Shown: in pieces, positions 19,021-64,000 of the stretch | Position numbering within the stretch: position 1 is the stretch's first letter | Layout of the letters: every line of letters starts with the position of its first letter | Assembly: GCA_964016885.1 (NCBI GenBank) | Contig: OZ024743.1 | Span: 75,268,001-75,332,000, forward strand | Source of the DNA: Eledone cirrhosa | Lineage: Eukaryota | Direction of reading: 5' to 3' | DNA: 64,000 bases | The notes under the pieces: model-generated | Databases searched by the model: none | What the model was told of the DNA's origin: nothing | The model's input: the letters and a program-made list of their open reading frames with translations, nothing else | Made by a program: the position numbers and the translations under genes

Positions 19021-19849
19021 GCTTTTAAGCTATTTTGTAGTATCTCTGTTCAGGAACACACCACTTATATTAAATTTATCTCCCTGGAGCTTTGTAAAAG
19101 TCTGAGAGATTGGCTACATATGTTTTATATATATATTTTTTTTTGTTTAGATGGAAGACAAAACAAAGAAGATGAATACAAAGATGAAGAGAAAGATGAA
19201 GAACCTCACTGCACAACACCACACTGCACCGCACTGCAGCACACCACATTGCAGTGCACCGAACCACATCACACCACACTTCACCACATAAAAACATACA
19301 ACACAACTCCACACCACAACTACTCCACACCACATAACACCACAACACAACACTCCCCACCACAACACACCACTCCACACCACAACACAACACACCACTC
19401 ATCACTACAACACACCACACTACTCCACATAAAAACACACACCACACTACTCCACACCACATAACACCCAAAATGTGTTCCTCATCTTTTTTTCATGTGT
19501 TATCAACTAATCTGATCTCCAAGATGTTTGTTATTGACTCTCTCTTCATGGAAAACTTAGGTGGATGCACTTCTCTCATTTAACACCAGAGTTTTCTCTA
19601 AGATTTTTCGTATATTATCAACGAATATGACCTCCAAACCAGTTGGAAATGATTAGTTGTTCTAGAAAAAAGGAGGGATAAAGCAGGTGGAAAAACCATT
19701 GTCGTTTTGTAGATATATACCCTAATGATTTTTCTTCGGTCTCCTTTTGAATGCTATCAACTAATCTGACCTTTTAGTTGCTCTGAATCAATTTTTTTTT
19801 CCTGGGATTTGGAAACTAAAACTAAATAAAACATAAAATTAAATCTAGC

Positions 19850-20177
19850 CCCAACCCTAAACTCTAAATCTAAACCAAACCAAGCTAAATCTAAATATAA
19901 ACATTACCCCAACCCTTAAACTAAACCCTAAACTATACCCCAACCCTAAAACTAAACCCTAAACTTTACCCCAAACCTAAAACTAAACCCTAAACTTTAC
20001 CCCAAACCTAAAACTAACCCTAAACTTTACCCCAACCCTAAAACTAGACCCTAAACATTACCCCAACCTTAAAACTAGACTCTAAACATTACCCCAACCT
20101 TAAAACTAGACCCTAAACATTACCCCAACCCTAAAACTAAACCCTAAACTTTACCCCAACCCTACCCTAAACCTAAC
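19850..20177. repeat. 31-bp telomere-like (AACCCT-rich) tandem repeat within inverted arms
   Basis: Unit CTAAACCCTAAACTTTACCCCAACCCTAAAA, about 9 copies. Confidence 0.85.
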
Positions 20178-20535
20178 CCAGGGAAATAAGTTGATTGGAA
20201 GCATCTAGTAGGTCAGATTAATTAATAGCACAGGAAATAGCATAGGAAATTAATAGCACAGGAAATATACCGAAAATGATTAAGTCCCACAACATGTGAG
20301 TGGGGTGTAAATCTGTAAAACGCTTCCCCTCTCCCTCTCCTCTTTCTCCAAAGCTAGTTGTTTTTGACTGGTTTAGAAGTCATATTCACTGATAACGCAT
20401 GAAAATAGAATCAAAGAGAAAATTCCGAGTAAGCAGGGGTTATCCGGGTGAAGGGGGAACCACCTCACCCCGCCGTTTTCCTGGGTGGAAAAAGTCAGTT
20501 TCAAGCATCTTGGAGATTGGATTAGTTGATAGCAC

Positions 20536-21325
20536 ATCTCATCGCATCTCGTCTCGTCTCGTCTCGCCTCGCCTCAAAAAGCCTCGCCTCACCTCGCCTC
20601 TCCTCGCCTCGCAAAGCCTCGCCTCACCTCGCAAAGCCTCGCAAAACCTCGCAAAACCTCGCAAAGCCTCGCAAAGCCTTGCCTCGCCTTGCAAAGCCTT
20701 GCCTCACCTCGCAAAGCCTCGCCTCACCTCGCCTTGCCTTGCAAAGCCTCGCCTTGCCTCACCTCGCAAAGCCTCACAAAACCTCGCCTCGCCATGCCTC
20801 GCCTCGCCTCGCCTCGCCACGCATTGCCTCGCCTCACCACGCCTCGCCTCGCCACGCCTTGCCTCACCTCGCAAAGCCTCACAAAGCCTTGCCTCACCTC
20901 GGCAAGCCTCGCCTCGCCACGCCTCGCCTCATTTCAACACGCCTCGCCTCATTTCACCACGCCACACCACATTTCATCACATCACATGCTACCACACTAC
21001 ATCCCACCACACTCCACTACACCATATCCCCCACCCTACATTGAACCACACCACTGTCCACTACACTAAACCACACTCCACTACACTACACCACTCCACT
21101 ACACTACACCACACTCCACTACACTACACCACTGTCCACTACACTACACCACACCACTATCCACTACACTAAACCACACTCCACTACACTACACCACTCC
21201 ACTACACTACACCACACTACACTACACCACTGTCCACTACACTACATCACACCACTGTCCACTACACTAAACCACACTCCACTACACTACACCACACTCC
21301 ACTACACTACACCACACCACACCAC
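20536..21325. repeat. Pentamer-based simple repeats (CCTCG)n grading into (CACTA/CACCA)n
   Basis: Direct inspection; similar CACAC tracts at 19205-19470. Confidence 0.9.
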
Positions 21326-22539
21326 TGTCTATTCGACTGTTTTCTATTTCGTAGGTATGTCCAGTTACAGTAAGAGAAAGAAAGTTATTTCAAAGGATCT
21401 GAGTAAGTAAACACTTCACTGACCATCATTTTAAGCAGAATCTCAGTGTAGTTTTAAATTGACCTTTTCATATGATTACACCTCAGTCTTAACTTAATCA
21501 CCTGTAGATGGATGCTACATGTAATGTTAAAATTAGTTAAACACTGTTTTCCCCTTCTCATCACATGTGGATGCTACATGTGTATTGTTAGCCTCACCAT
21601 ATCATACCACACCACATCACACCATGTTGTACCACACCAGACCACATAACACCATGCTATACCATATATATATATATATGAGCTCCCCACTTGTTATATT
21701 AACTGTATCTCCTCAGTGTTTCATGAAAGTCTGAGAGATCAGCTATATATTTGTTTACAATTTTTTTTATATTTAGATGGAAAAGAAGAAAAAGATAACG
21801 AACCAGACGACTAAAATGAAAATGACAACAAAGACAAAGAAGACACGGGAAACGAAGATGACAAAAAGAAGAAGAAAGTATGATCTCAGTTCAGTCTAAA
21901 CCTAATGATTTATAGATATGATCTTAGTTCAGTCTTAACCTAATGACTGTAGATACGATCTATTTAGGTTTAACTTAAACATTCAAAGATATTTGTATAT
22001 ACTTTTGTTGATGTTTGACATTGTTTTTTAGTTATGAAATAGCTTATAAGCTACATTATAGGATCACAGTGCATGAGCACACTGCTCTTTAAATTAACTT
22101 TATCTCCTCAGCACTTTGTAAAGTCTGAGAGATAGGCAACATATATGTTTTACATTCTTTGTTTTGGGTATTTAGATGGCAGAGGAGAAGATAAAGGCAC
22201 AGAAGAAGTCAAAGGCACAGAAGAAAACAAAGAAAATGAACAAGAAGAACAATTTTTATTACTATTATTATTTGTATTATTATAATCAAACTAAGCCACA
22301 CTACATCAACCTATACCATACCACACCACACTGACAAACATTATACCATACCAAATTATCCAACATCACACTACGAAACACTGTACGACCTCACATCAGA
22401 CCATGCTATGAAACAATATACCATACTACACTATACAACAAGAGACAACACCACACAAGACTATGAAACACTATACTTTACCACACTATATCACACCACT
22501 CAAGTTAGAGAGGACCAACTTTTTTCCTGGAAAGTAGAA

Positions 22540-25500
22540 AACCTAACTTTAAGCTAAAACCGAACTTTAAAAATAACACTTACCCTAACACTTGCACTCA
22601 CACATGCTCTAACAGTGAACTTAGCGCTAACATGAAAACTAACACAAACACAAAATCTGAAAACTAACACTAAATAGAAAACTAACACAATCACTAACAC
22701 TAACCTGAACACCAGCACTTAAACTAACACTACCATAAATACTAATACAAACACTAACACTAAAACTAACATTAGCACAAACATTAGCCTGAACACTAGC
22801 ACTAAAACTAACACTACCATAAACACTAACACTGACCTGAGCACTAACACTAAAAGTAACACTAACACAAACACTAATCTGAAAACTGATACTAACCAGA
22901 AAACTAAGCTAACATTAACTTCAACACTAAAACAAACACTAACGCTAACAGAGATACTAACACAAATATTAACACAAAAACAAACACTAGCACAATCTCT
23001 AACACTAACCTTAACACTAAAACTAACATTAACTTGAACACTAACACTAACCTGAACACTTACACTAAAACTAACATTAACCTGAACACTAACACTAAAA
23101 CTAACACTAACAGAAATACTAACACAAATATTAACACAAAAACAAACACTAACAAAATCTCTAACACTAAAACTAACATTAACTTGAACACTAACCTGAA
23201 AACTAAGCTAACATTAATCTGAACACTAACACAAACACTCATGCTAACACTAACAGAAATACTAATGCTAACATTAACACAAAAACAAAGACTAACGCTA
23301 ACACTAATGGAAACATCAATCACTAATGCTAACAGAGATACTAACACAAATATTAACACAAAAACAAACACTAGCACAATCTCTAACACTAACCTTAACA
23401 CTAAAACTAACACTAACATTAACTTGAACACCAACACTAACCTGAACACTTACACTAAAACTAACATTAACCTGAACACTAACACTAAAACTAACACTAA
23501 CAGAGATACTAACACAAATATTAACACAAAAACAAACACTAACAAAATCTCTAACACTAAAACTAACATTAACTTGAACACTAACCTGAAAACTAAGCTA
23601 ACATTAATCTGAACACTAACACAAACACTCATGCTAACACTAACAGAAATACAAATGCTAACATTAACACAAAAACAAAGACTAACGCGAACACAATCAC
23701 TAACACTAATGGAAACATCAATCACTAATGCTAACAGAGATACTAACACAAATATTAACACAAAAACAAATACTAACACTAACCTTAACACTAAAACTAA
23801 CACTAACATTAACTTGAACACTAACACTGACCTGAACACTTACACTAAAACTAACATTAACCCTGAACACTAACACTAAAACTAACAGAGATACTAACAC
23901 AAATATTAACACAAAAACAAACACTAACACAATCTCTAACACTAAAACTAACATTAACTTGAACACTAACACTAACCTGAAAACTAAGCTAACATTAACC
24001 TGAACACTAACACAAACACTCATGCTAACACTAACAGAAATACTAATGCTAACATTAACACAAAAACAAAGTCTAACGCTAACACTAATGGAAACATCAA
24101 TCACTAATGCTAACAGAGATACTAACACAAATATTAACACAAAAACAAACACTAACCTTAACACTAAAACTAACATTAACACTTACACTAAAACTAACAC
24201 TACCATAAACAGTAACACAAACACTAACACTGATCTGAGCACTAACAGTAACACTAACACTACCATGAAAACTAACACAAAAAAAACACTAACACTAACC
24301 TGAACACTAACACTAAAACTGATACAAACCAGAAAACTAAGCGAACATTAACCTCAACACTAACATTAACAGAAAAACAAAGACAAGCACTAACACAAAC
24401 ATTAACACAAAATAAAACAGTAACACTAATGGAAAAACTAACACTAAAACTAACACTACCGTAAACACTAACACGAGCACTAACTCTAAAACTGACATTA
24501 ACACGAACATTAACCTGAACACTAACACAAACACTAACACTAACAAAAATGCTAACACTAATACAAAATCAAACACTAACACGAATACTAATGAAAACAC
24601 TAACGCCAACGCTGGCACTGACGAAGATGGCTATGCTGGCACAAACGCTAGCGCAAATGTTGATACAATCGCTTACGCTGACACAAATGCTCACGCTGAT
24701 ATAAAAAAAGCAAATGCAGACACAGAGGCAAATGTTGATGCAGATGTTAAAGCATACCTGAAAACTAAGCTAACATTAACCTGAACACTAACACAAACAC
24801 TCATGCTAACACTAACAGAAATACTAATGCTAACATTAAAACAAAAACAAAGACTAACGCTAACACAATCACTAACACTAAAGGAAACATCAATCACTAA
24901 TGCTAACAGAGATACTAACACAAATATTAACACAAAAACAAATACTAACACTAACACATTCTCTAACACTAACCTTAACACTAAAACTAACATTAACACT
25001 AACATAACTTGAACACTAACACTAACCTGAACACTTACACTAAAACTAACATTAACCTAAACACTAGCACTAAAACTAACACTACCATAAACAGTAACAC
25101 AAACACTAACACTGATCTGAGCACTAACAGTAACACTAACACTACCATAAAAACTAACACTAACCTGAACACTAAAACTAAAACTAACACAAAAACTAAG
25201 CTAACATTAACCTCAACACTAAAACAAACACTAACATTAACAGAAAAATAAAGACTAGCACTAACACTAATGGAAACACTAACACAAACATTAACACAAA
25301 ATAAAACACTAACACTACCATAAACACTAACGCTAAAACTGACATTAACACGAACATTAACCTGAACACTAACACTACCATAAACCACTAACCTGAGCAC
25401 TAACACTAAAAGTAACATGAGCCCTAACCTGAAAACTAACACTAACCAGAAAACTAAGTCAACATTAACCTGAACACTAACACTAACAAAAATACTAACA

Positions 25501-27620
25501 CTAACAAAAATGCTTACACTAATACAAAATCAAACACTAACACGAACACTAATGGAAACACTAACGCCAAAGCTGACACTGACGAAGATGGCTATGCTGG
25601 TACAAACGCTAGCGCAAATGTTGACACAATCGCTTATGCTGACACAAACACTAAGGTGAATACTGATGCAGGTGCAAAGGCGAATGCTGACAAAGATTCT
25701 GACGCACACGCTGATGTAAATGCTACACAGACTCTAACGCTGACGTGGACACTGACACAAATGCTCACGCTGATGCAAACACTAAAGCAAATGCAGACAC
25801 TAATGCAAACACAGACGCAAATCTTGATGCAGATGTTAAAGCAAACGCAAATACTGACGCAAATGATGACAGCGATGCTAATGTGAACCTTAACGCAGAC
25901 GTAAACATTGACGTAGAAGTTAAAGGAAACACTGATGCAAACACTAATGAAAATGCTGATGCAGACGCTGACACAGACGCTAACACACATTAACACAGAT
26001 GCTAACGTAAACACTGACGCAGATGTTAATATAAACACTGACGCAGACGCTAACATAAACGCTGACACAGACGCTAACACACGTTAACACATATGCTAAC
26101 GTAAACACTGACGCAGATGCTAACGTAAACACTGACACAGACGCTAATATAAACGCTGAGACAGACACTAATATAAACACTGACACAGACGCTAACATAA
26201 ATGCTGACACAGATGCTAACACACGTTGACACAGACGCTAATGTAAACGATGACGTAGAAGCTAACGTAAACGCTGACACAGACGCAAATGTAAACGCTG
26301 ACGTAGAAGCTAATGTAGATGCTGACGTAGAAGCTAACGTAAACGATGACGTAGATGTTAACGTAGACGCTGACGTAGAAGCTAACGTAGATGCTGACGT
26401 AGAAGCTAACGTAAATGATGACGTAGATGTTAACGTAGACGCTGACGTAGAAGCTAACGTAAACGCTGACGTAGAAGCTAACAAAACGCTGACGTAGTTG
26501 TTACGTAGAAGCAGGCGTTGAAGTTAGCGTTTACCCTTACCGCCGAAGCTGATCTCCAAAACGCAATTGCTGATGTGGATTGCTGAAGCCAAAGCGAAGC
26601 TAACGCTGACGCAAATGTTGAGGCAGTTTTGCCGGCGCTGACGTGTATGCTGACGCTAATGCAAATGCTGATGCGGATGCTAAGGCTAACGTTAACGCTG
26701 ATGCAAATGCTGAAGTTAACGCCTACATGGGATATGCAGACGCTGCAATGATGCGGAGGATGCCACAGGAAAGGTTGATGGAAACGCCAATGCTAACGGA
26801 AAACGCTGACGTAGACGTTACGGAAACGCTGACGTAGAAGCTAACGTAAACGCTGACACAGACGCTAACGTAAACACTGACGTTAACTGAAATGCTGACG
26901 CTGATGTAGATGTAAATACTGACGCTGACACAGACGCGGTCGGAAACACTGACGTAGATGCTGTCGGAAACGCTGACGTAGAAGCTAACGGAATCACTGA
27001 CACAGACGCTAACGGAAACGCTGACAAAGACGTTAAAGGAAACGCTGTCGCTAATGCTAATGTGAATGCTGATGCAGATGCTGAAGCAAATGCTAACCCC
27101 TACACAAATGCAAACGCTGATGCTAACACTGACTCAAACACTAATGCAAATGCTGACGTGCACGCTGATGCAAATGCTGACACTGAGGGAAATGCTGACA
27201 CTGACACAAGTGCTGACGCGGACGCTAATGATAATGCTGACTCAGAAGCTGATGTAGACGTAGGCACTGAAACAAACACTAATGCTAACACTAATGTTGA
27301 CTCAGACGCTAAGGGAAATGCTGACACAATCACTATCACCAATGCAGACGCTGACGCAAATGCTGACACTTACGCAAACACTAACGCAGATGCTAACACC
27401 AGTCTACATAGACACTAACACAAAAGCTTACATAGACGCTTATGCAAATGCTAACGCTGATGCAGACAGTAACGCAAACAGTAACTGTAAGAGTAACAAT
27501 TACAGTAACACTAACAGTGACAGTAATGCTAACAGTAACACAGTCACTAACAATAAACTTACCATTAACAGTAAAACTTACCCTAACACTAACCCTAAAT
27601 CTAACATTAATCCAGAGAAA
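22540..27620. repeat. 5-kb degenerate hexamer array (ACTAAC grading to GCTGAC/GACGTA) with ~390-bp higher-order repeats
   Basis: Hexamer periodicity throughout; the marker GGAAACATCAATCACTAATGCT recurs at ~23309, 23711, 24090 and 24883. Confidence 0.9.
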
Positions 27621-28137
27621 AAAGTCATTTAAGGTCACTCTTTAAGATATAGAAGATAGGCATTACATTTTAATGATTTTAATTTAAAGAGAATCACGCT
27701 ATACGATGCAACACAATAACACACCACACCACACTAACCTACACTACACCAAACCAGATTATACCATACCTTGGTAAATTTATGATAGGTTTCCATGTTA
27801 TAACTACACCAAACTAAACCATACCAAACTACACCAAACCAAACCACACCATAACAAACTACACCATACTACATCACACCATGCTATTGAACTCAGTGTG
27901 AAAAATTTTCTTCATGCTTTTTTTGTCTTTTTTTGTGTGTGTGCTTACCACCCAATCTGACATTAAAAATGTTTGCAATTAACTATTTTTTGCACATATT
28001 ATCAATGAAGACTTTGAAACCTGTTGAAAATGACTATCTTTGTAGAAAAAAGAGGGCGGAAAGTGGGTGGAAATACCATTCACAAAGCTTGTCATTTTTG
28101 ATTGCAGTGAAAGTCATATTTGTTGTTAATATGGAAA

Positions 28138-50061: not shown

Positions 50062-50190
50062 ATGGCGAAGCAAAGTGATGGATCGTCTATTGTGTGGGCT
50101 TTTAAAACTAATGTAACTTGTAAAAATGGACTAACTTGGTCCGATGACAATCGGATTGCTATGTGTGCTGATGATGGTGTATTCATAATT
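50062..50190 (+). CDS. GTF3C4: GTF3C4 exon 1 (MAKQSDGSSIVWAFKTNVTCKNGLTWSDDNRIAMCADDGVFII)
   Basis: aaaATGGCG start, ATT|gtaagg donor, WSxDxRI motif. Confidence 0.88.
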
Positions 50191-51181: not shown

Positions 51182-54100
51182 AGAATCTCACCCGTCTTCT
51201 ATAACTGATACTGTGTTAGGTTGATTGCTAGTGTAATAATATCACCTGCCTTCTATAACTGATACTGTGTTAGATTGATTGCTAGTTTAAGAATCTCACC
51301 TGTCTTCTATAACTGATACTGTGTTAGGTTGATTGCTAGTTTAAGAATCTCACCTGTCTTCTATAACTGATACTGTGTTAGGTTGATTGCTAGTTTAAGA
51401 ATCTCACCTGTCTTCTATAACTGATACTGTGTTAGGTTGATTGCTAGTGTAATAATATCACCTGTCTTCTATAACTGATACTGTGTTAGGTTGATTGCTA
51501 GTGTAATAATATCACCTGTCTTCTATAACTGATACTGTGTTAGATTGATTGCTAGTGTAATAATATCACCTGCCTTCTATAACTGATACTGTGTTAGGTT
51601 GATTGCTAGTTTAAGAATCTCACCTGTCTTCTATAACTGATACTGTGTTAGGTTGATTGCTAGTTTAAGAATCTCACCTGTCTTCTATAACTGATACTGT
51701 GTTAGGTTGATTGCTAGTTTAAGAATCTCACCTGTCTTCTATAACTGATACTGTGTTAGGTTGATTGCTAGTTTAAGAATCTCACCTGTCTTCTATAACT
51801 GATACTGTGTTAGGTTGATTGCTAGTTTAAGAATCTCACCTGTCTTCTATAACTGATACTGTGTTAGGTTGATTGCTAGTTTAAGAATCTCACCTGTCTT
51901 CTATAACTGATACTGTGTTAGGTTGATTGCTAGTTTAAGTATCTCACCTGTCTTCTATAACTGATACTGTGTTAGGTTGATTGCTAGTTTAAGAATCTCA
52001 CCTGTCTTCTATAACTGATACTGTGTTAGGTTGATTGCTAGTTTAAGAATCTCACCTGTCTTCTATAACTGATACTGTGTTAGGTTGATTGCTAGTTTAA
52101 GAATCTCACCTGTCTTCTATAACTGATACTGTGTTAGGTTGATTGCTAGTTTAAGAATCTCACCTGTCTTCTATAACTGATACTGTGTTAGATTGATTGC
52201 TAGTTTAAGTATCTCACCTGTCTTCTATTACTGATACTGTGTTAGGTTGATTGCTAGTTTAAGTATCTCACCTGTCTTCTATAACTGATATTGTGTTAGG
52301 TTGATTGCTAGTGTAATAACATCACCTGTCTTCTATAACTGATACTGTGTTAGGTTGATTGCTAGTTTAAGAATCTCACCTGTCTTCTATAACTGATACT
52401 GTGTTAGATTGATTGCTAGTTTAAGAATCTCACCTGTCTTCTATAACTGATACTGTGTTAGATTGATTGCTAGTGTAATAACATCACCTGTCTTCTATAA
52501 CTGATACTGTGTTAGGTTGATTGCTAGTTTAAGAATCTCACCTGTCTTCTATAACTGATACTGTGTTAGATTGATTGCTAGTTTACGAATCTCACCTGTC
52601 TTCTATAACTGATACTGTGTTAGATTGATTGCTAGTTTAAGAATCTCACCTGTCTTCTATAACTGATACTGTGTTAGATTGATTGCTAGTTTAAGAATCT
52701 CACCTGTCTTCTATAACTGATACTGTGTTAGATTGATTGCTAGTTTAAGAATCTCACCTGTCTTCTATAACTGATACTGTGTTAGATTGATTGCTAGTTT
52801 AAGAATCTCACCTGTCTTCTATAACTGATACTGTGTTAGATTGATTGCTAGTGTAATAATCTCACCTGTCTTCTATAACTGATACTGTCTTAGATTGATT
52901 GCTAGTGTAATAATGTCACCTGTCTTCTATAACTGATACTGTGTTAGATTGATTACTAGTTTAAGAATCTCACCTGTCTTCTATAACTGATACTGTGTTA
53001 GATTGATTGCTAGTTTAAGAATCTCACCTGTCTTCTATAACTGATACTGTCTTAGATTGATTGCTAGTGTAATAATGTCACCTGTCTTCTATAACTGATA
53101 CTGTGTTAGATTGATTACTAGTTTAAGAATCTCACCTGTCTTCTATAACTGATACTGTGTTAGATTGATTGCTAGTGTAAGAATCTCACCTGTCTTCTAT
53201 AACTGATACTGTGTTAGGTTGATTGCTAGTTTAAGAATCTCACCTGTCTTCTATAACTGATACTGTGTTAGGTTGATTGCTAGTTTAAGAATCTCACCTG
53301 TCTTCTATAACTGATACTGTGTTAGATTGATTGCTAGTGTAAGAATCTCACCTGTCTTCTATAACTGATACTGTGTTAGATTGATTACTAGTTTAAGAAT
53401 CTCACCTGTCTTCTATAACTGATACTGTGTTAGATTGATTGCTAGTGTAAGAATCTCACCTGTCTTCTATAACTGATACTGTGTTAGGTTGATTGCTAGT
53501 TTAAGAATCTCACCTGTCTTCTATAACTGATACTGTGTTAGATTGATTGCTAGTGTAAGAATCTCACCTGTCTTCTATAACTGATACTGTGTTAGGTTGA
53601 TTGCTAGTTTAAGAATCTCACCTGTCTTCTATAACTGATACTGTGTTAGATTGATTGCTAGTGTAATAATATCACCTGTCTTCTATAACTGATACTATGT
53701 TAGGTTGATTACTAGTTTAAGAATCTCACCTGTCTTCTATAACTGATACTGTGTTAGGTTGATTGCTAGTTTAAGTATCTCACCTGTCTTCTATAACTGA
53801 TACTGTGTTAGGTTGATTGCTAGTTTAAGAATCTCACCTGTCTTCTATAACTGATACTGTGTTAGGTTGATTGCTAGTGTAAGAATATCACCTGTCTTCT
53901 ATAACTGATACTGTGTTAGATTGATTGCTAGTGTAATAACATCACCTGTCTTCTATAACTGATACTGTGTTAGGTTGATTGCTAGTTTAAGAATCTCACC
54001 TGTCTTCTATAACTGATACTGTGTTAGATTGATTGCTAGTTTAAGAATCTCACCTGTCTTCTATAACTGATACTGTGTTAGATTGATTGCTAGTGTAATA

Positions 54101-54593
54101 ATCTCACCTGTCTTCTATAACTGATACTGTGTTAGATTGATTGCTAGTTTAAGAATCTCACCTGTCTTCTATAACTGATACTGTGTTAGATTGATTGCTA
54201 GTGTAAGAATCTCACCTGTCTTCTATAACTGATACTGTGTTAGGTTGATTGCTAGTTTAAGAATCTCACCTGTCTTCTATAACTCATACTGTGTTAGGTT
54301 GATTGCTAGTTTAAGAATCTCACCTGTCTTCTATAACTGATACTGTGTTAGATTGATTGCTAGTGTAAGAATCTCACCTGTCTTCTATAACTGATACTGT
54401 GTTAGGTTGATTGCTAGTTTAAGAATCTCACCTGTCTTCTATAACTGATACTGTGTTAGGTTGATTGCTAGTTTAAGAATCTCACCTGTCTTCTATAACT
54501 GATACTGTGTTAGATTGATTGCTAGTGTAAGAATCTCACCTGTCTTCTATAACTGATACTGTGTTAGGTTGATTGCTAGTTTAAGAATCTCAC
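51182..54593. repeat. 54-bp minisatellite, about 63 copies, in GTF3C4 intron 1
   Basis: Unit AATCTCACCTGTCTTCTATAACTGATACTGTGTTAG(G/A)TTGATTGCTAGTTTAAG. Confidence 0.97.
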
Positions 54594-57000: not shown

Positions 57001-57133
57001 GAACTAACGTCCAACTTCCATCTTTTGCGAGGAACTCTCCTTGCCAGGAGGACTATGATTTCACCTCATTCAGACATCTTTTACAGCACAGAAATTTTCA
57101 ATCTAGAAGAACTTGAAAACAGACTACCTCGAG
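57001..57133 (+). CDS. GTF3C4: GTF3C4 exon 2 (ELTSNFHLLRGTLLARRTMISP...ENRLPR)
   Basis: aaag/gtaaat boundaries, phase 0 to 1, open frame. Confidence 0.82.
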
Positions 57134-57993: not shown

Positions 57994-58111
57994 AGGAATT
58001 CAATTCCATCCTTATTGACAGAACAATTAGCCCAACAGTCCAGTATTCCATTCCTCCTCAAGGTTACAAGTCTGCAAACTGGTCCCCAAAAGGGGCAGAT
58101 GATGTTGGCAG
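57994..58111 (+). CDS. GTF3C4: GTF3C4 exon 3 (EEFNSILIDRTISPTVQYSIPPQGYKSANWSPKGADDVGR)
   Basis: ttccag/gtaaaa boundaries; WSPxGxDxxGR motif. Confidence 0.92.
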
Positions 58112-59493: not shown

Positions 59494-59572
59494 ATGTGTC
59501 CTTGCATGTCTAGCCATTGACCACCGACTGACCATCTGTCGGGAAGATAGATATAGAAGTCTGTGGATTAAG
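59494..59572 (+). CDS. GTF3C4: GTF3C4 exon 4 (CVLACLAIDHRLTICREDRYRSLWIK)
   Basis: cttcag/gtaaat boundaries; C.LA.L..D.RLTI motif. Confidence 0.92.
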
Positions 59573-60319
59573 GTAAATACATTTTTTTTTTGCATGCAAC
59601 TTCGTAAATTACCCCCTTAACCATTTAGCATTTAAACTGGCTGTATACGGCCAGAACTCTCACCTCTTTCTGTTCAAACTGGCCATACTGACATTAAGGT
59701 ATTGTTCTCAAAATAAATAATTGTTTCTACTTTTGGCACAAGGCCAGCAATTACTCCAGTGCATTACTGGTGCTTTTTATTAAATCGACCCTGTAAGGGT
59801 GAAAGGCAAAGTTAACCTCGGCGGGATTTGAACTCAGACCATAAAGGGTCATAACTCTATGCTTCAAAGCATGGCATCCGACCCTCTACCGATAATGCCA
59901 ATCCACAGCCAAAATAAATAATATCAAAATCTCATAGATTCGATATTATGTGAGATAATTATGAGAGGTAAAGCCTTTACCATCAAAATATAATAGTATA
60001 TATAGAGTAATGTAAATATTATGAGAGGTAAAGCCTTTACCATCAAAATATAATAGTATATATAGAGTAATGTAAATGTTATGTGAGATATTATGAGAGG
60101 TAAAGCCTTTACCATCAAAATATAATCGTATATATAGAGTAATGTAAATGTTAAAGGGCTAAAGACAAGAAAAAAATAGACAGTTTCCTCTGTCTACTTT
60201 AATTTCCATCTCTAAGAGTAATTACTCAGTTTCCTCAACTATCATCTATAACGATTGACTGTTATTACGGTTAATTTCTGCAGTTGGGACACTCACGTTT
60301 TCAACTTTCTGTATTTCAG

Positions 60320-60440
60320 GTCATAGACTGCTCCAAAGTATATGAAGATATTTGGAAAAAGAACAACAGCAGTTTTTTAAAAGGTCAGGAGATCAATTTT
60401 GAGTACCTGAAGACAATCTCCTATGCACTAGCAGCTGTTG
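60320..60440 (+). CDS. GTF3C4: GTF3C4 exon 5 (VIDCSKVYEDIWKKNNSSFLKGQEINFEYLKTISYALAAV)
   Basis: tttcag acceptor, GTTG|gtaagt donor; its 3' end is the first unit of the downstream minisatellite. Confidence 0.85.
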
Positions 60441-63400
60441 GTAAGTTGGTGGTCACTCTCACTTTGCTCTTATACACTAGCAGCTGTTGGTAAGTTGGTG
60501 GTCACTCTCACTTTGCCATACACTAGCAGCTGTTGGTAAGTTGGTGGTCACTCTCACTTTGCTCCTATACACTAGCAGCTGTCGGTCAGTTAGTGGTCAC
60601 TCTCACTTTGCTCCTATACACTAGCAGCTGTTGGTAAGTTGGTGGTCACTCTCACTTTGCCCCTATACACTAGCAGCTGTTGGTAAGTTGGTGGTCACTC
60701 TCAGTACACTCCTATACACTAGCAGCTGTCGGTCAGTTAGTGGTCACTCTCAGTACACTCCTATAGACTAGCAACTGTTGGTAAGTTGGTGGTCACTCTC
60801 ACTTTGCTCCTATACACTAGCAGCTGTTGGTAAGTTGGTGGTCACTCTCACTTTGCTCCTATACACTAGCAGCTGTTGGTAAGTTGGTGGTCACTCTCAC
60901 TTTGCTCCTATACACTAGCAGCTGACGGTCAGTTAGTGGTCACTCTCACTTTGCTCTTATACACTAGCAGCTGTTGGTAAGTTGGTGGTCACTCTCACTT
61001 TGCTCCTATATACTAGCAGCTGTTGGTAAGTTGGTGGTCACTCTCACTTTGCTCTTATACACTAGCAGCTGTCGGTCAGTTAGTGGTCACTAGCAGCTGT
61101 TGGTAAGTTGGTGGTCACTCTCACTTTGCTCCTATACACTAGCAGCTGTTGGTAAGTTGGTGGTCACTCTCACTTTGCTCCTATACACTAGCAGCTGTTG
61201 GTAAGTTGGTGGTCACTCTCACTTTGCTCCTATACACTAGCAGCTGTTGGTAAGTTGGTGGTCACTCTCACTTTGCTCCTATACACTAGCAGCTGTTGGT
61301 AAGTTGGTGGTCACTCTCACTTTGCTCCTATACACTAGCAGCTGTTGGTAAGTTAGTGGTCACTCTCACTTTGCTCCTATACACTAGCAGCTGTTGGTAA
61401 GTTGGTGGTCACTCTCACTTTGCTCCTATACACTAGCAGCTGTTGGTAAGTTGGTGGTCACTCTCACTTTGCTCCTATACACTAGCAGCTGTTGGTAAGT
61501 TGGTGGTCACTCTCACTTTGCTCCTATACACTAGCAGCTGTTGGTAAGTTGGTGGTCACTCTCACTTTGCTCCTATACACTAGCAGCTGTCGGTCAGTTA
61601 GTGGTCACTAGCAGCTGTTGGTAAGTTGGTGGTCACTCTCACTTTGCTCCTATACACTAGCAGCTGTTGGTCAGTTGGTGGTCACTCTCAGTTTACTCCT
61701 ATACACTAGCAGCTGTTGGTAAATCCGTGGTCACTCTCAGTACACTCCTATACACTAGCAGCTGTAGGTAAGTTGGTGGTCACTCTCACTTTGCTCCTAT
61801 AGACTAGCAGCTGTTGGTAAGTTGGTGGTCACTCTCACTTTGCTCCTATACACTAGCAGCTGTCGGTCAGTTAGTGGTCACTCTCACTTTGCTCCTATAC
61901 ACTAGCAGCTGTTGGTAAGTTGGTGGTCACTCTCACTTTGCCCCTATACACTAGCAGCTGTTGGTAAGTTGGTGGTCACTCTCACTTTGCTCCTATACAC
62001 TAGCAGCTGTCGGTCAGTTAGTGGTTACTCTCACTTTGCCCCTATACACTAGCAGCTGTTGGTAAGTTAGTGGTCACTCTCACTTTGCTCCTATACACTA
62101 GCAGCTGTTGGTAAGTTGGTGGTCACTCTCACTTTGCTCCTATACACTAGCAGCTGTCGGTCAGTTAGTGGTCACTCTCAGTACACTTCTATACACTAGC
62201 AGCTGTTGGTAAGTTGGTGGTCACTCTCACTTTGCCCCTATACACTAGCAGCTGTCGGTCAGTTGGTGGTCACTCTCAGTTTACTCCTATACACTAGCAG
62301 CTGTTGGTAAGTTGGTGGTCACTCTCTCTTTGCCCCTATACACTAGCAGCTGTCGGTCAGTTGGTGGTCACTCTCAGTTTACTCCTATACACTAGCAGCT
62401 GTTGGTGGTCACTCTCAGTTTGCTCCTATACACTAGCAGCTGTTGGTGGTCACTCTCAGTTTGCTCCTATACACTAGCAGCTGTTGGTGGTCACTCTCAG
62501 TTTGTTCCTATACACTAGCAGCTGTTGGTGGTCACTCTCAGTTTGCTCCTATACACTAGCAGCTGTTGGTGGTCACTCTCAGTTTGCTCCTATACACTAG
62601 CAGCTGTTGGTGGTCACTCTCAGTTTACTCCTATACACTAGCAGCTGTTGGTGGTCACTCTCAGTTTGCTCCTATGCACTAACAGCTGTTGGTGGTCACT
62701 CTCTGTTTACTCCTATACACTAGCAGCTGTTGGTGGTCACTCTCAGTTTGCTCCTATACACTAGCAGCTGTTGGTGGTCACTCTCAGTTTACTCCTATAC
62801 ACTAGCAGCTGTTGGTGGTCACTCTCAGTTTACTCCTATACACTAGCAGCTGTTGGTGGTCACTCTCAGTTTGCTCCTATACACTAGCAGCTGTTGGTGG
62901 TCACACTCTGTTTACTCCTATACACTAGCAGCTGTTGGTGGTCACTCTCAGTTTGCTCCTATACACTAGCAGCTGTTGGTGGTCACTCTCAGTTTGCTCC
63001 TATGCACTAACAGCTGTTGGTGGTCACTCTCTGTTTACTCCTATACACTAGCAGCTGTTGGTGGTCACTCTCAGTTTGCTCCTATACACTAGCAGCTGTT
63101 GGTGGTCACTCTCAGTTTGCTCCTATACACTAGCAGCTGTTGGAGGTCACTCTCAGTTTACTCCTATACACTAGCAGCTGTTGGTGGTCACTCTCAGTTT
63201 GCTCCTATGCACTAACAGCTGTTGGTGGTCACTCTCTGTTTACTCCTATACACTAGCAGCTGTTGGTGGTCACTCTCAGTTTGCTCCTATACACTAGCAG
63301 CTGTTGGTGGTCACTCTCAGTTTACTCCTATACACTAGCAGCTGTTGGTGGTCACTCTTAGTTTGCTCCTATACACTAGCAGCTGTTGGTGGTCACTCTC

Positions 63401-63510
63401 AGTTTGCTCCTATGCACTAACAGCAGTTGGTGGTCACTCTCAGTTTGCTCCTATGCACTAACAGCTGTTGGTGGTCACTCAGTTTGCTCCTATACACTAG
63501 CAGCTGTTGG
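60418..63510 (+). repeat. Minisatellite of ~40 x 49-bp then ~27 x 41-bp units, starting inside GTF3C4 exon 5
   Basis: Unit CTCCTATACACTAGCAGCTGTTG|GTAAGTTGGTGGTCACTCTCACTTTG; distal units lack 8 bp including GTAAG. Confidence 0.97.
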
Positions 63511-64000
63511 AAGCCAGATACCCTTTTTGACAACAACTCTTTTAGTCCCCTCTTACAAAATGCAAGAATAAGGAATACCTATTCTAAACTATTACACTGG
63601 TCAACATACTTTTTGCTGACTCATGTTTTGTTGTTGTTTTTAGCTAATTTTGAGATGCTGATTTCAAATATGGCATCCATTTCCCCTTAACACAGGTTTT
63701 CATGTTTGTCTTTCGCTCGGTTATCCCATAAACACAGGAAACATGGATATTTTGTATATACTCTCCTTGTTGGTCATAGGAAAACTTGACGCGATAGAAA
63801 AGAAAGTATTGCCATTCTTAAACTCAGTGGCCCCAAATATCTCAAGAACAGGTCTTTAAACTATGATCACCAGAAAAAGAGGCAAAATTTTGTTGACCAG
63901 TGTTGTATATACAGACAAAAATATATTTACTATATTAAGTTTATGGCTGAAACTATTAGAATATTTTAATAACAATTTCAATGTTATGCACATTATCTAT

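Follow-up and report, generated by a model that had tools for sequence, protein, structure and literature searches.

Introduction

Tandem repeats whose first unit lies across an exon-intron boundary have been described before. According to the available part of PMC1557585, the first unit of the 37-bp VNTR in intron 7 of F7 spans the exon-intron boundary, and the same class includes IFI6 (6-16), CBS (intron 13), LMNB2, and PDGF. Only the most upstream of the identical donors is reported there to be used in F7, LMNB2, and PDGF, and nearby pseudo-donors are used in CBS and IFI6. Minisatellite-like boundary duplications, many of them with AG/GT signals, are known from amphioxus as 'mirages' (Adh3 and the globins BflGb6 and BflGb9); as far as the accessible portion of PMC3087553 describes them, they leave regular splicing undisturbed and undergo concerted evolution within blocks. 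That portion also contains the proposal that exons and introns may be gained from mirage AG/GT signals. A further system to compare is that of eMIC-dependent microexons. In flies these exons have UGC, UCUC, a weak acceptor, a long AG exclusion zone, and CUAAY (PMC8797185, in the part available), and UGC accompanies 74-79% of mammalian eMIC targets (10.1101/2024.09.17.613571, likewise in part).

Here, we analyzed a 64,000-nt stretch of DNA from the octopod Eledone cirrhosa (the window; positions 75268001-75332000 of contig OZ024743.1, assembly GCA_964016885.1), in which a minisatellite begins inside exon 5 of GTF3C4 and reiterates its splice donor. Our searches of literature listings, which reached few subscription papers, turned up neither a cephalopod minisatellite that spans a donor nor one that gives rise to microexons.

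Results

Identity and exon layout of GTF3C4

We placed 19 exons of the gene in the window and the 95 kb downstream of it (given below in coordinates continued past the window end). They encode an open 726-aa protein, of which 702 residues are identical to the GTF3C4 protein of Octopus bimaculoides. The latter stands in a cluster of five octopod sequences and matches human GTF3C4 in PDB 8cli_B (E 1.7e-29). The gene name proposed in an earlier sequence-only reading of this DNA is confirmed. The first five exons lie on the forward strand: exon 1 with the ATG start (50062-50190, tblastn 100% to residues 1-43 of protein P0001, with a GT donor), exon 2 (57001-57133), exon 3 (57994-58111), exon 4 (59494-59572, placed with the other GTF3C4 exons), and exon 5 (60320-60440, 98% identity to O. 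bimaculoides GTF3C4), which is entered in phase 0 and left in phase 1 through the authentic donor after 60440. Exon 6 starts at continued coordinate 64039, 39 nt past the window end, and intron 5 is therefore 3,598 nt long, 85% of it array, with unique sequence at 63511-64000 (forward strand) up to the window end. The shortest intron of the gene measures 329 nt. An open frame at 63696-63862 was considered as exon 6 and rejected, as it has no match to GTF3C4. A search of the genome for PF12657 gave no match anywhere and is uninformative. Apart from exon 6 (E 0.0047, under the cut-off), no single exon had the length that Pfam needs.

Further downstream, intron 16 (continued coordinates 88090-90884) is, by the consensus motifs, a U12-type AT-AC intron; it starts with ATATCCTT and carries TTCCTTAAC just before the terminal AC. 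This intron is required for the GTF3C4 frame.

Anatomy of the array

The minisatellite covers 60418-63510 (TRF: period 49, 68 copies) and runs head-to-tail from a start 23 nt inside exon 5, so that its first letters are the last 23 nt of the exon, as the sequence-only reading had stated. That reading had closed the array at 62400 and thereby missed 1.1 kb of donor-less units, which run on to 63510. We split the array into 69 anchors that fall into two blocks and a final partial copy, all on the forward strand.

The donor-bearing block (60418-62392) has 41 units, namely 38 of 49 bp, one of 46 bp, and two of 28 bp. The 49-bp units are 96% identical to their consensus, and 16 of the 38 match it exactly. 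In agreement with the earlier count for 60418-62400, the donor position reads GTAAGT in 29 units (the real donor and 28 copies), GTCAGT in 11, and GTAAAT in one. TAGCAG and GTAAGT occur together in 27 of the 40 internal units of this block, each of which holds a potential pseudo-exon of 9 nt (after TAG) or 6 nt (after CAG). CTCTCAC occurs 31 times, and the distance from a donor to the next TAG is 40 nt (49 minus 9), with adjacent units 40-43 nt apart. These counts confirm what the sequence-only reading observed. The acceptor that it saw in the units consists of the exon's own Leu-Ala-Ala codons standing behind the intronic part of the preceding unit, and is no new element. Exon and copies show a one-base difference (TATGCAC in the exon, TATACAC in most copies).

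The donor-less block (62393-63497) comprises 27 units, 26 of 41 bp and one of 39 bp; an 8-nt piece that held the donor is missing from them. Judging from their sequence, these units would derive from an 8-nt deletion between two copies of GTTGG. In total, the donor has been lost in 28 of 68 internal copies. The array ends on its exon-derived part, a last partial copy of the exon tail at 63498-63510. At 63498-63520, the letters after this exon-derived end lack a single base of a GTAAG donor; they may represent either the original start of the intron, minus a T, or the junction left by a deletion.

Single-locus occurrence and origin

The array is neither chance nor artefact. A 23-nt motif of the unit has 34 matches in the 3.0-Gb genome, all 34 of them inside the array, and its reversed control has none. 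The 49-bp go-back joint was found in contigs of three DNA runs, at a depth of 104-213 compared with 3-8 for single-copy contigs; the three runs are not independent, because they come from one sample, possibly the assembled one.

As to its origin, the array probably arose when a segment of about 49 bp across the exon 5 boundary was duplicated locally in tandem; slippage or unequal exchange would then have multiplied the copies. The 41-bp donor-less and the 28-bp variants would stem from short deletions at microhomologies and would have spread in blocks. Both variants look like the outcome of a deletion between short direct repeats, and their grouping in blocks is what slippage and unequal exchange would be expected to leave.

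Strength of the copied splice signals

We scored splice sites with weight matrices built from the 16-17 sites of GTF3C4 itself, and all scores are accordingly rough. Copied GTAAGT donors scored 10.0-10.4 and the real one 10.0; as the real donors of GTF3C4 range from 2.2 to 11.2, the copied donor is a good one. The GTCAGT donors reached 1.8-5.4, against 10.0 for the real donor. The acceptor of the unit is mediocre. In the commonest unit, CAG scored 4.8 and TAG -1.2, compared with a median of 10.6 for real acceptors, and the tract contains 6 T in 17 nt, compared with 9-13 in the real acceptors of the gene. The CAG site stands above 98% of 1,566 background intronic AGs and above 4 of 17 real acceptors (one of the four being misplaced by 1 nt), and below the other 13. 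Measured back from the CAG end, a branch-like CTCAC lies at about 25 nt, a UGC at 19 nt, and the next AG upstream at -38. Few donors are preceded by a YAG at a distance of 6 or 9 nt: this was the case at 2 of 79 exon ends, one of which is that of GTF3C4 exon 5 itself. Other exon flanks, 366,800 nt in all, contained 44 similar motifs of the form YAG-6/9nt-GTRAG.

The 40-43 nt between adjacent units are less than the usual sizes of animal introns. Alternate units, 89-92 nt apart, could splice together. Folding did not make the first donor more open than its copies (unpaired 0.06, against 0.06-0.33), and variant counts per position were too few for a test of selection on the pseudo-exon.

Consequences for the reading frame

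In silico, an insert of 6 or 9 nt leaves an open protein of 728 or 729 aa with Ala-Val or Ala-Ala-Val added. Use of the second donor adds 49 nt, and the shifted frame runs into a stop within exon 6, at codon 215. Every later donor takes in an in-frame TAA at 60491-60493 (forward strand). The frame arithmetic of the sequence-only reading therefore holds for these in-silico isoforms. An insert would sit directly ahead of the residues aligned with the human PVRMEWS motif and would leave the sequence there unchanged, so that its effect is likely small.

Transcript and protein evidence

Four sequencing runs from one study were listed, none of them recorded as RNA; one run, X4, was judged RNA-like on the sole ground that its contig joins exons. 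In this contig (contig 25, 2,304 nt), exons 2, 3, and 5 are joined, and the lengths agree with exon 4 lying between the last two. Its match to exon 5 contains no additional letters and runs up to 60440, where the contig leaves the exon for a further 1,725 letters that do not belong to the intron start. The first donor is used in the major form, as seen in one assembled contig from one run of unrecorded tissue. Contig 25 was read on the exon 5 side only, where a clean join and a 6/9-nt insert look alike, and rare forms are lost in assembly. The length of 1,725 letters corresponds to 1,601 nt of coding sequence and 124 nt of UTR, with the end 16 nt after AATAAA; with an insert, the end would fall 7-10 nt after AATAAA, and the length of the contig gives a slight hint that no insert is present. 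The X4 depth over exon 5 (bins of 13.4 and 17.4) equals that of contig 25 alone (25.9 x 62/120 and 25.9 x 61/91). No 49-bp joint occurs in the X4 contigs, which carries no weight as evidence, since contigs drop rare forms.

Among related proteins, none of five octopod GTF3C4 sequences has an insert, and all read YALAAVAMAWS; these are gene models that may miss microexons, from species that may lack the array.

Other arrays and a wider test of donors

Arrays lie at or beside 3 of the 18 GTF3C4 donors, and the donor is reiterated at two of the 18, the second case without GT. At the exon 18 donor (continued coordinates 91796-91948), the first unit of a repeat of about 30 bp x 5 spans the donor, and the nearest copy has lost its GT. 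Intron 15 (continued coordinates 79682-86678) holds a 7-kb array of 24 bp x 291 that starts 8 nt after the exon 15 donor and does not copy it. In intron 1, a minisatellite of 54 bp x 63 is followed by a long TA tract (51182-54593).

We then considered donors of two other gene sets, placed by score from 17 sites so that some may be wrong. The myosin set (70 of 72 exon matches, 61 donors scoring 4 or more) had 7 array starts within 50 nt, compared with 3.1 expected (P 0.04, post hoc). The kinesin set (70 of 107 exon matches, less 9 that had no intron, were broken, or were duplicates; 47 donors) had 2, compared with 2.0 expected, and did not replicate the myosin signal. Pooled, the two sets gave 9 array starts against 5.1 expected (P 0.07), and the donor 16-mer recurred downstream at none of the 108 donors. 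The arrays at or beside GTF3C4 donors had prompted the notion that minisatellites in octopus tend to arise at donors, which we rejected. Donor reiteration is rare in the E. cirrhosa genome, going by these 108 donors and the 18 of GTF3C4.

Repeats of other kinds were also observed. Just upstream of the exon 5 acceptor, 60203-60310 is the end of a dispersed repeat that has matches of about 80% at dozens of places; these often occur in inverted pairs, and the repeat is therefore MITE-like. Two similar composite low-complexity blocks, at 19200-27900 and at continued coordinates 129400-136500, lie about 110 kb apart, and their repeat types (ACCAC, CTCGC, CTAACA, and 24-bp and 72-bp units) follow one another in an identical order, which suggests a large repetitive mobile element or a duplicated gene.

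Discussion

We consider the array to be, most likely, a neutral single-locus minisatellite spanning an exon boundary, whose first donor is used and whose leaks are cleaned up by NMD. Exon 5 would be recognized as the segment between its strong upstream acceptor and the first donor. Occasional use of a later donor would lead to premature stops, and the products would be cleared by NMD. The 6/9-nt pseudo-exons would mostly be ignored by splicing, because their acceptor is mediocre and exons so short usually need dedicated enhancers. We thus infer an origin by duplication, neutrality, clearance by NMD, and silence of the pseudo-exons, and the copies are likely silent passengers. The anatomy and the reading frames given in the sequence-only reading stand; none of the functions it attached to them is supported. 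The one spliced contig uses the first donor, the five proteins have no insert, and 28 of 68 copies are without a donor. Its route to the birth of microexons or introns had a forerunner in the proposal made for amphioxus mirages (PMC3087553).

A less probable reading, which we regard as unlikely, is that the second or third donor is used measurably, with the products lost by NMD, so that the length or composition of the array slightly lowers GTF3C4 output, as in a CBS/IFI6-like case. The 28 extra GTAAGT are about as strong as the real donor, and every extension brings in a premature stop far ahead of the last junction, so that such products would not show in steady-state contigs. IFI6 and CBS use their two nearest pseudo-sites, according to the available part of PMC1557585. 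Against this, the spliced X4 contig uses the first donor, and F7 constructs are described in the same part of that report as using only the most upstream site, even when a stronger one lies downstream.

The possibility that, in particular tissues, a neuronal SRRM/eMIC-type factor includes one or more non-adjacent units and so places (AV)n or (AAV)n in front of a conserved strand in the propeller of TFIIIC90 appears more doubtful still. The frame would be kept, the donor is strong, a small rate per site would be multiplied by 27 copies, and the rarity of a YAG at 6 or 9 nt from a donor makes the arrangement unusual. The UGC at 19 nt, the UCUC run, and the weak acceptor are features of fly eMIC exons as given in the available part of PMC8797185. 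However, no more than about 35 nt are free of AG, CTCAC stands in place of CUAAY as the branch-like motif, and chance alone often puts a UGC into a window of this kind. Moreover, no insert-bearing transcript was seen (in one contig, on the exon 5 side only), the close spacing of adjacent units stands against their joint use, and the insert is not conserved in the five related proteins, with the donor being lost in so many copies. In its boldest form, this proposal makes the array a microexon nursery in octopus neurons, in which non-adjacent units are spliced singly or serially and a basal Pol III factor acquires a variable (Ala-Val)n or (Ala-Ala-Val)n stutter at a rate set by repeat number. 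We give this form an equally small chance; if true, it would be a mirage caught creating frame-neutral exons.

A ratchet point of recursive splicing is an AG directly followed by a donor, which allows traceless removal. AG stands directly before a donor in one of 68 internal copies, the sole unit with AG directly before GTAAGT being at 61756-61804 (forward strand, AGGT at 61766), and the stepwise splicing intermediates once suggested for this locus find a fit in that unit only. A selected U1 decoy field or stepwise splicing ladder is highly improbable: it can point to this unit and to the density of donor motifs (29 in 2 kb), but the intron is short at 3.6 kb, donors are disappearing from whole blocks of units, the acceptor of any other unit leaves 6-9 nt in the mRNA so that removal would not be traceless, and two other large GTF3C4 arrays have no donors, so arrays here need no splicing function.

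The neutral minisatellite that we favor offers a ready-made test of donor choice, with the donor-less block as a built-in control. Pseudo-exons in mRNA, if found, would show the step from boundary duplication to new microexon, which has been proposed and rarely witnessed.

The locus is a single-locus repeat with units within 10-160 bp, its first unit sits on the authentic site, and the signal is reiterated; upstream-site predominance in mRNA is seen in the one contig that leaves at 60440 (one run, major form only). Compared with F7-type VNTRs as described in the available part of PMC1557585, it shares a first unit that spans the donor, donors reiterated in the intron, and use, as far as seen, of the most upstream one. 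It differs in belonging to a mollusc gene, in having 28 exact extra donors instead of 4-25, and in the exonic share of the unit (23 nt, compared with 4 in F7). The NAGNAG located 6/9 nt before the donor in each unit and the derived donor-less block set it apart as well. With amphioxus mirages, in the accessible portion of their description, it has in common that it is an invertebrate boundary duplication, with 68 copies compared with 3-6 in the globins; its pseudo-exon would be a frame-neutral 6/9-nt microexon, not a large exon piece. Like SRRM3/4 (eMIC) neural microexons, as far as the available parts of the sources describe them, the pseudo-exons have a length that is a multiple of three (3-27 nt, frame-preserving in that system), a weak acceptor, and UGC/UCUC upstream. 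Unlike them, they have a short AG-free zone, no CUAAY, no conservation, and many competing copies, and are known here from sequence alone. Local duplication that copies splice signals is known from another system as well; in GTF3C4, the duplicated segment includes a donor that was already there, and it is an old intron that has grown. The GTF3C4 array belongs to the described F7 VNTR/mirage class, within which the frame-neutral 6/9-nt pseudo-exon is the one uncommon twist, and it extends this class to an octopod with a fairly large natural case of many identical donors, the first of which is used.
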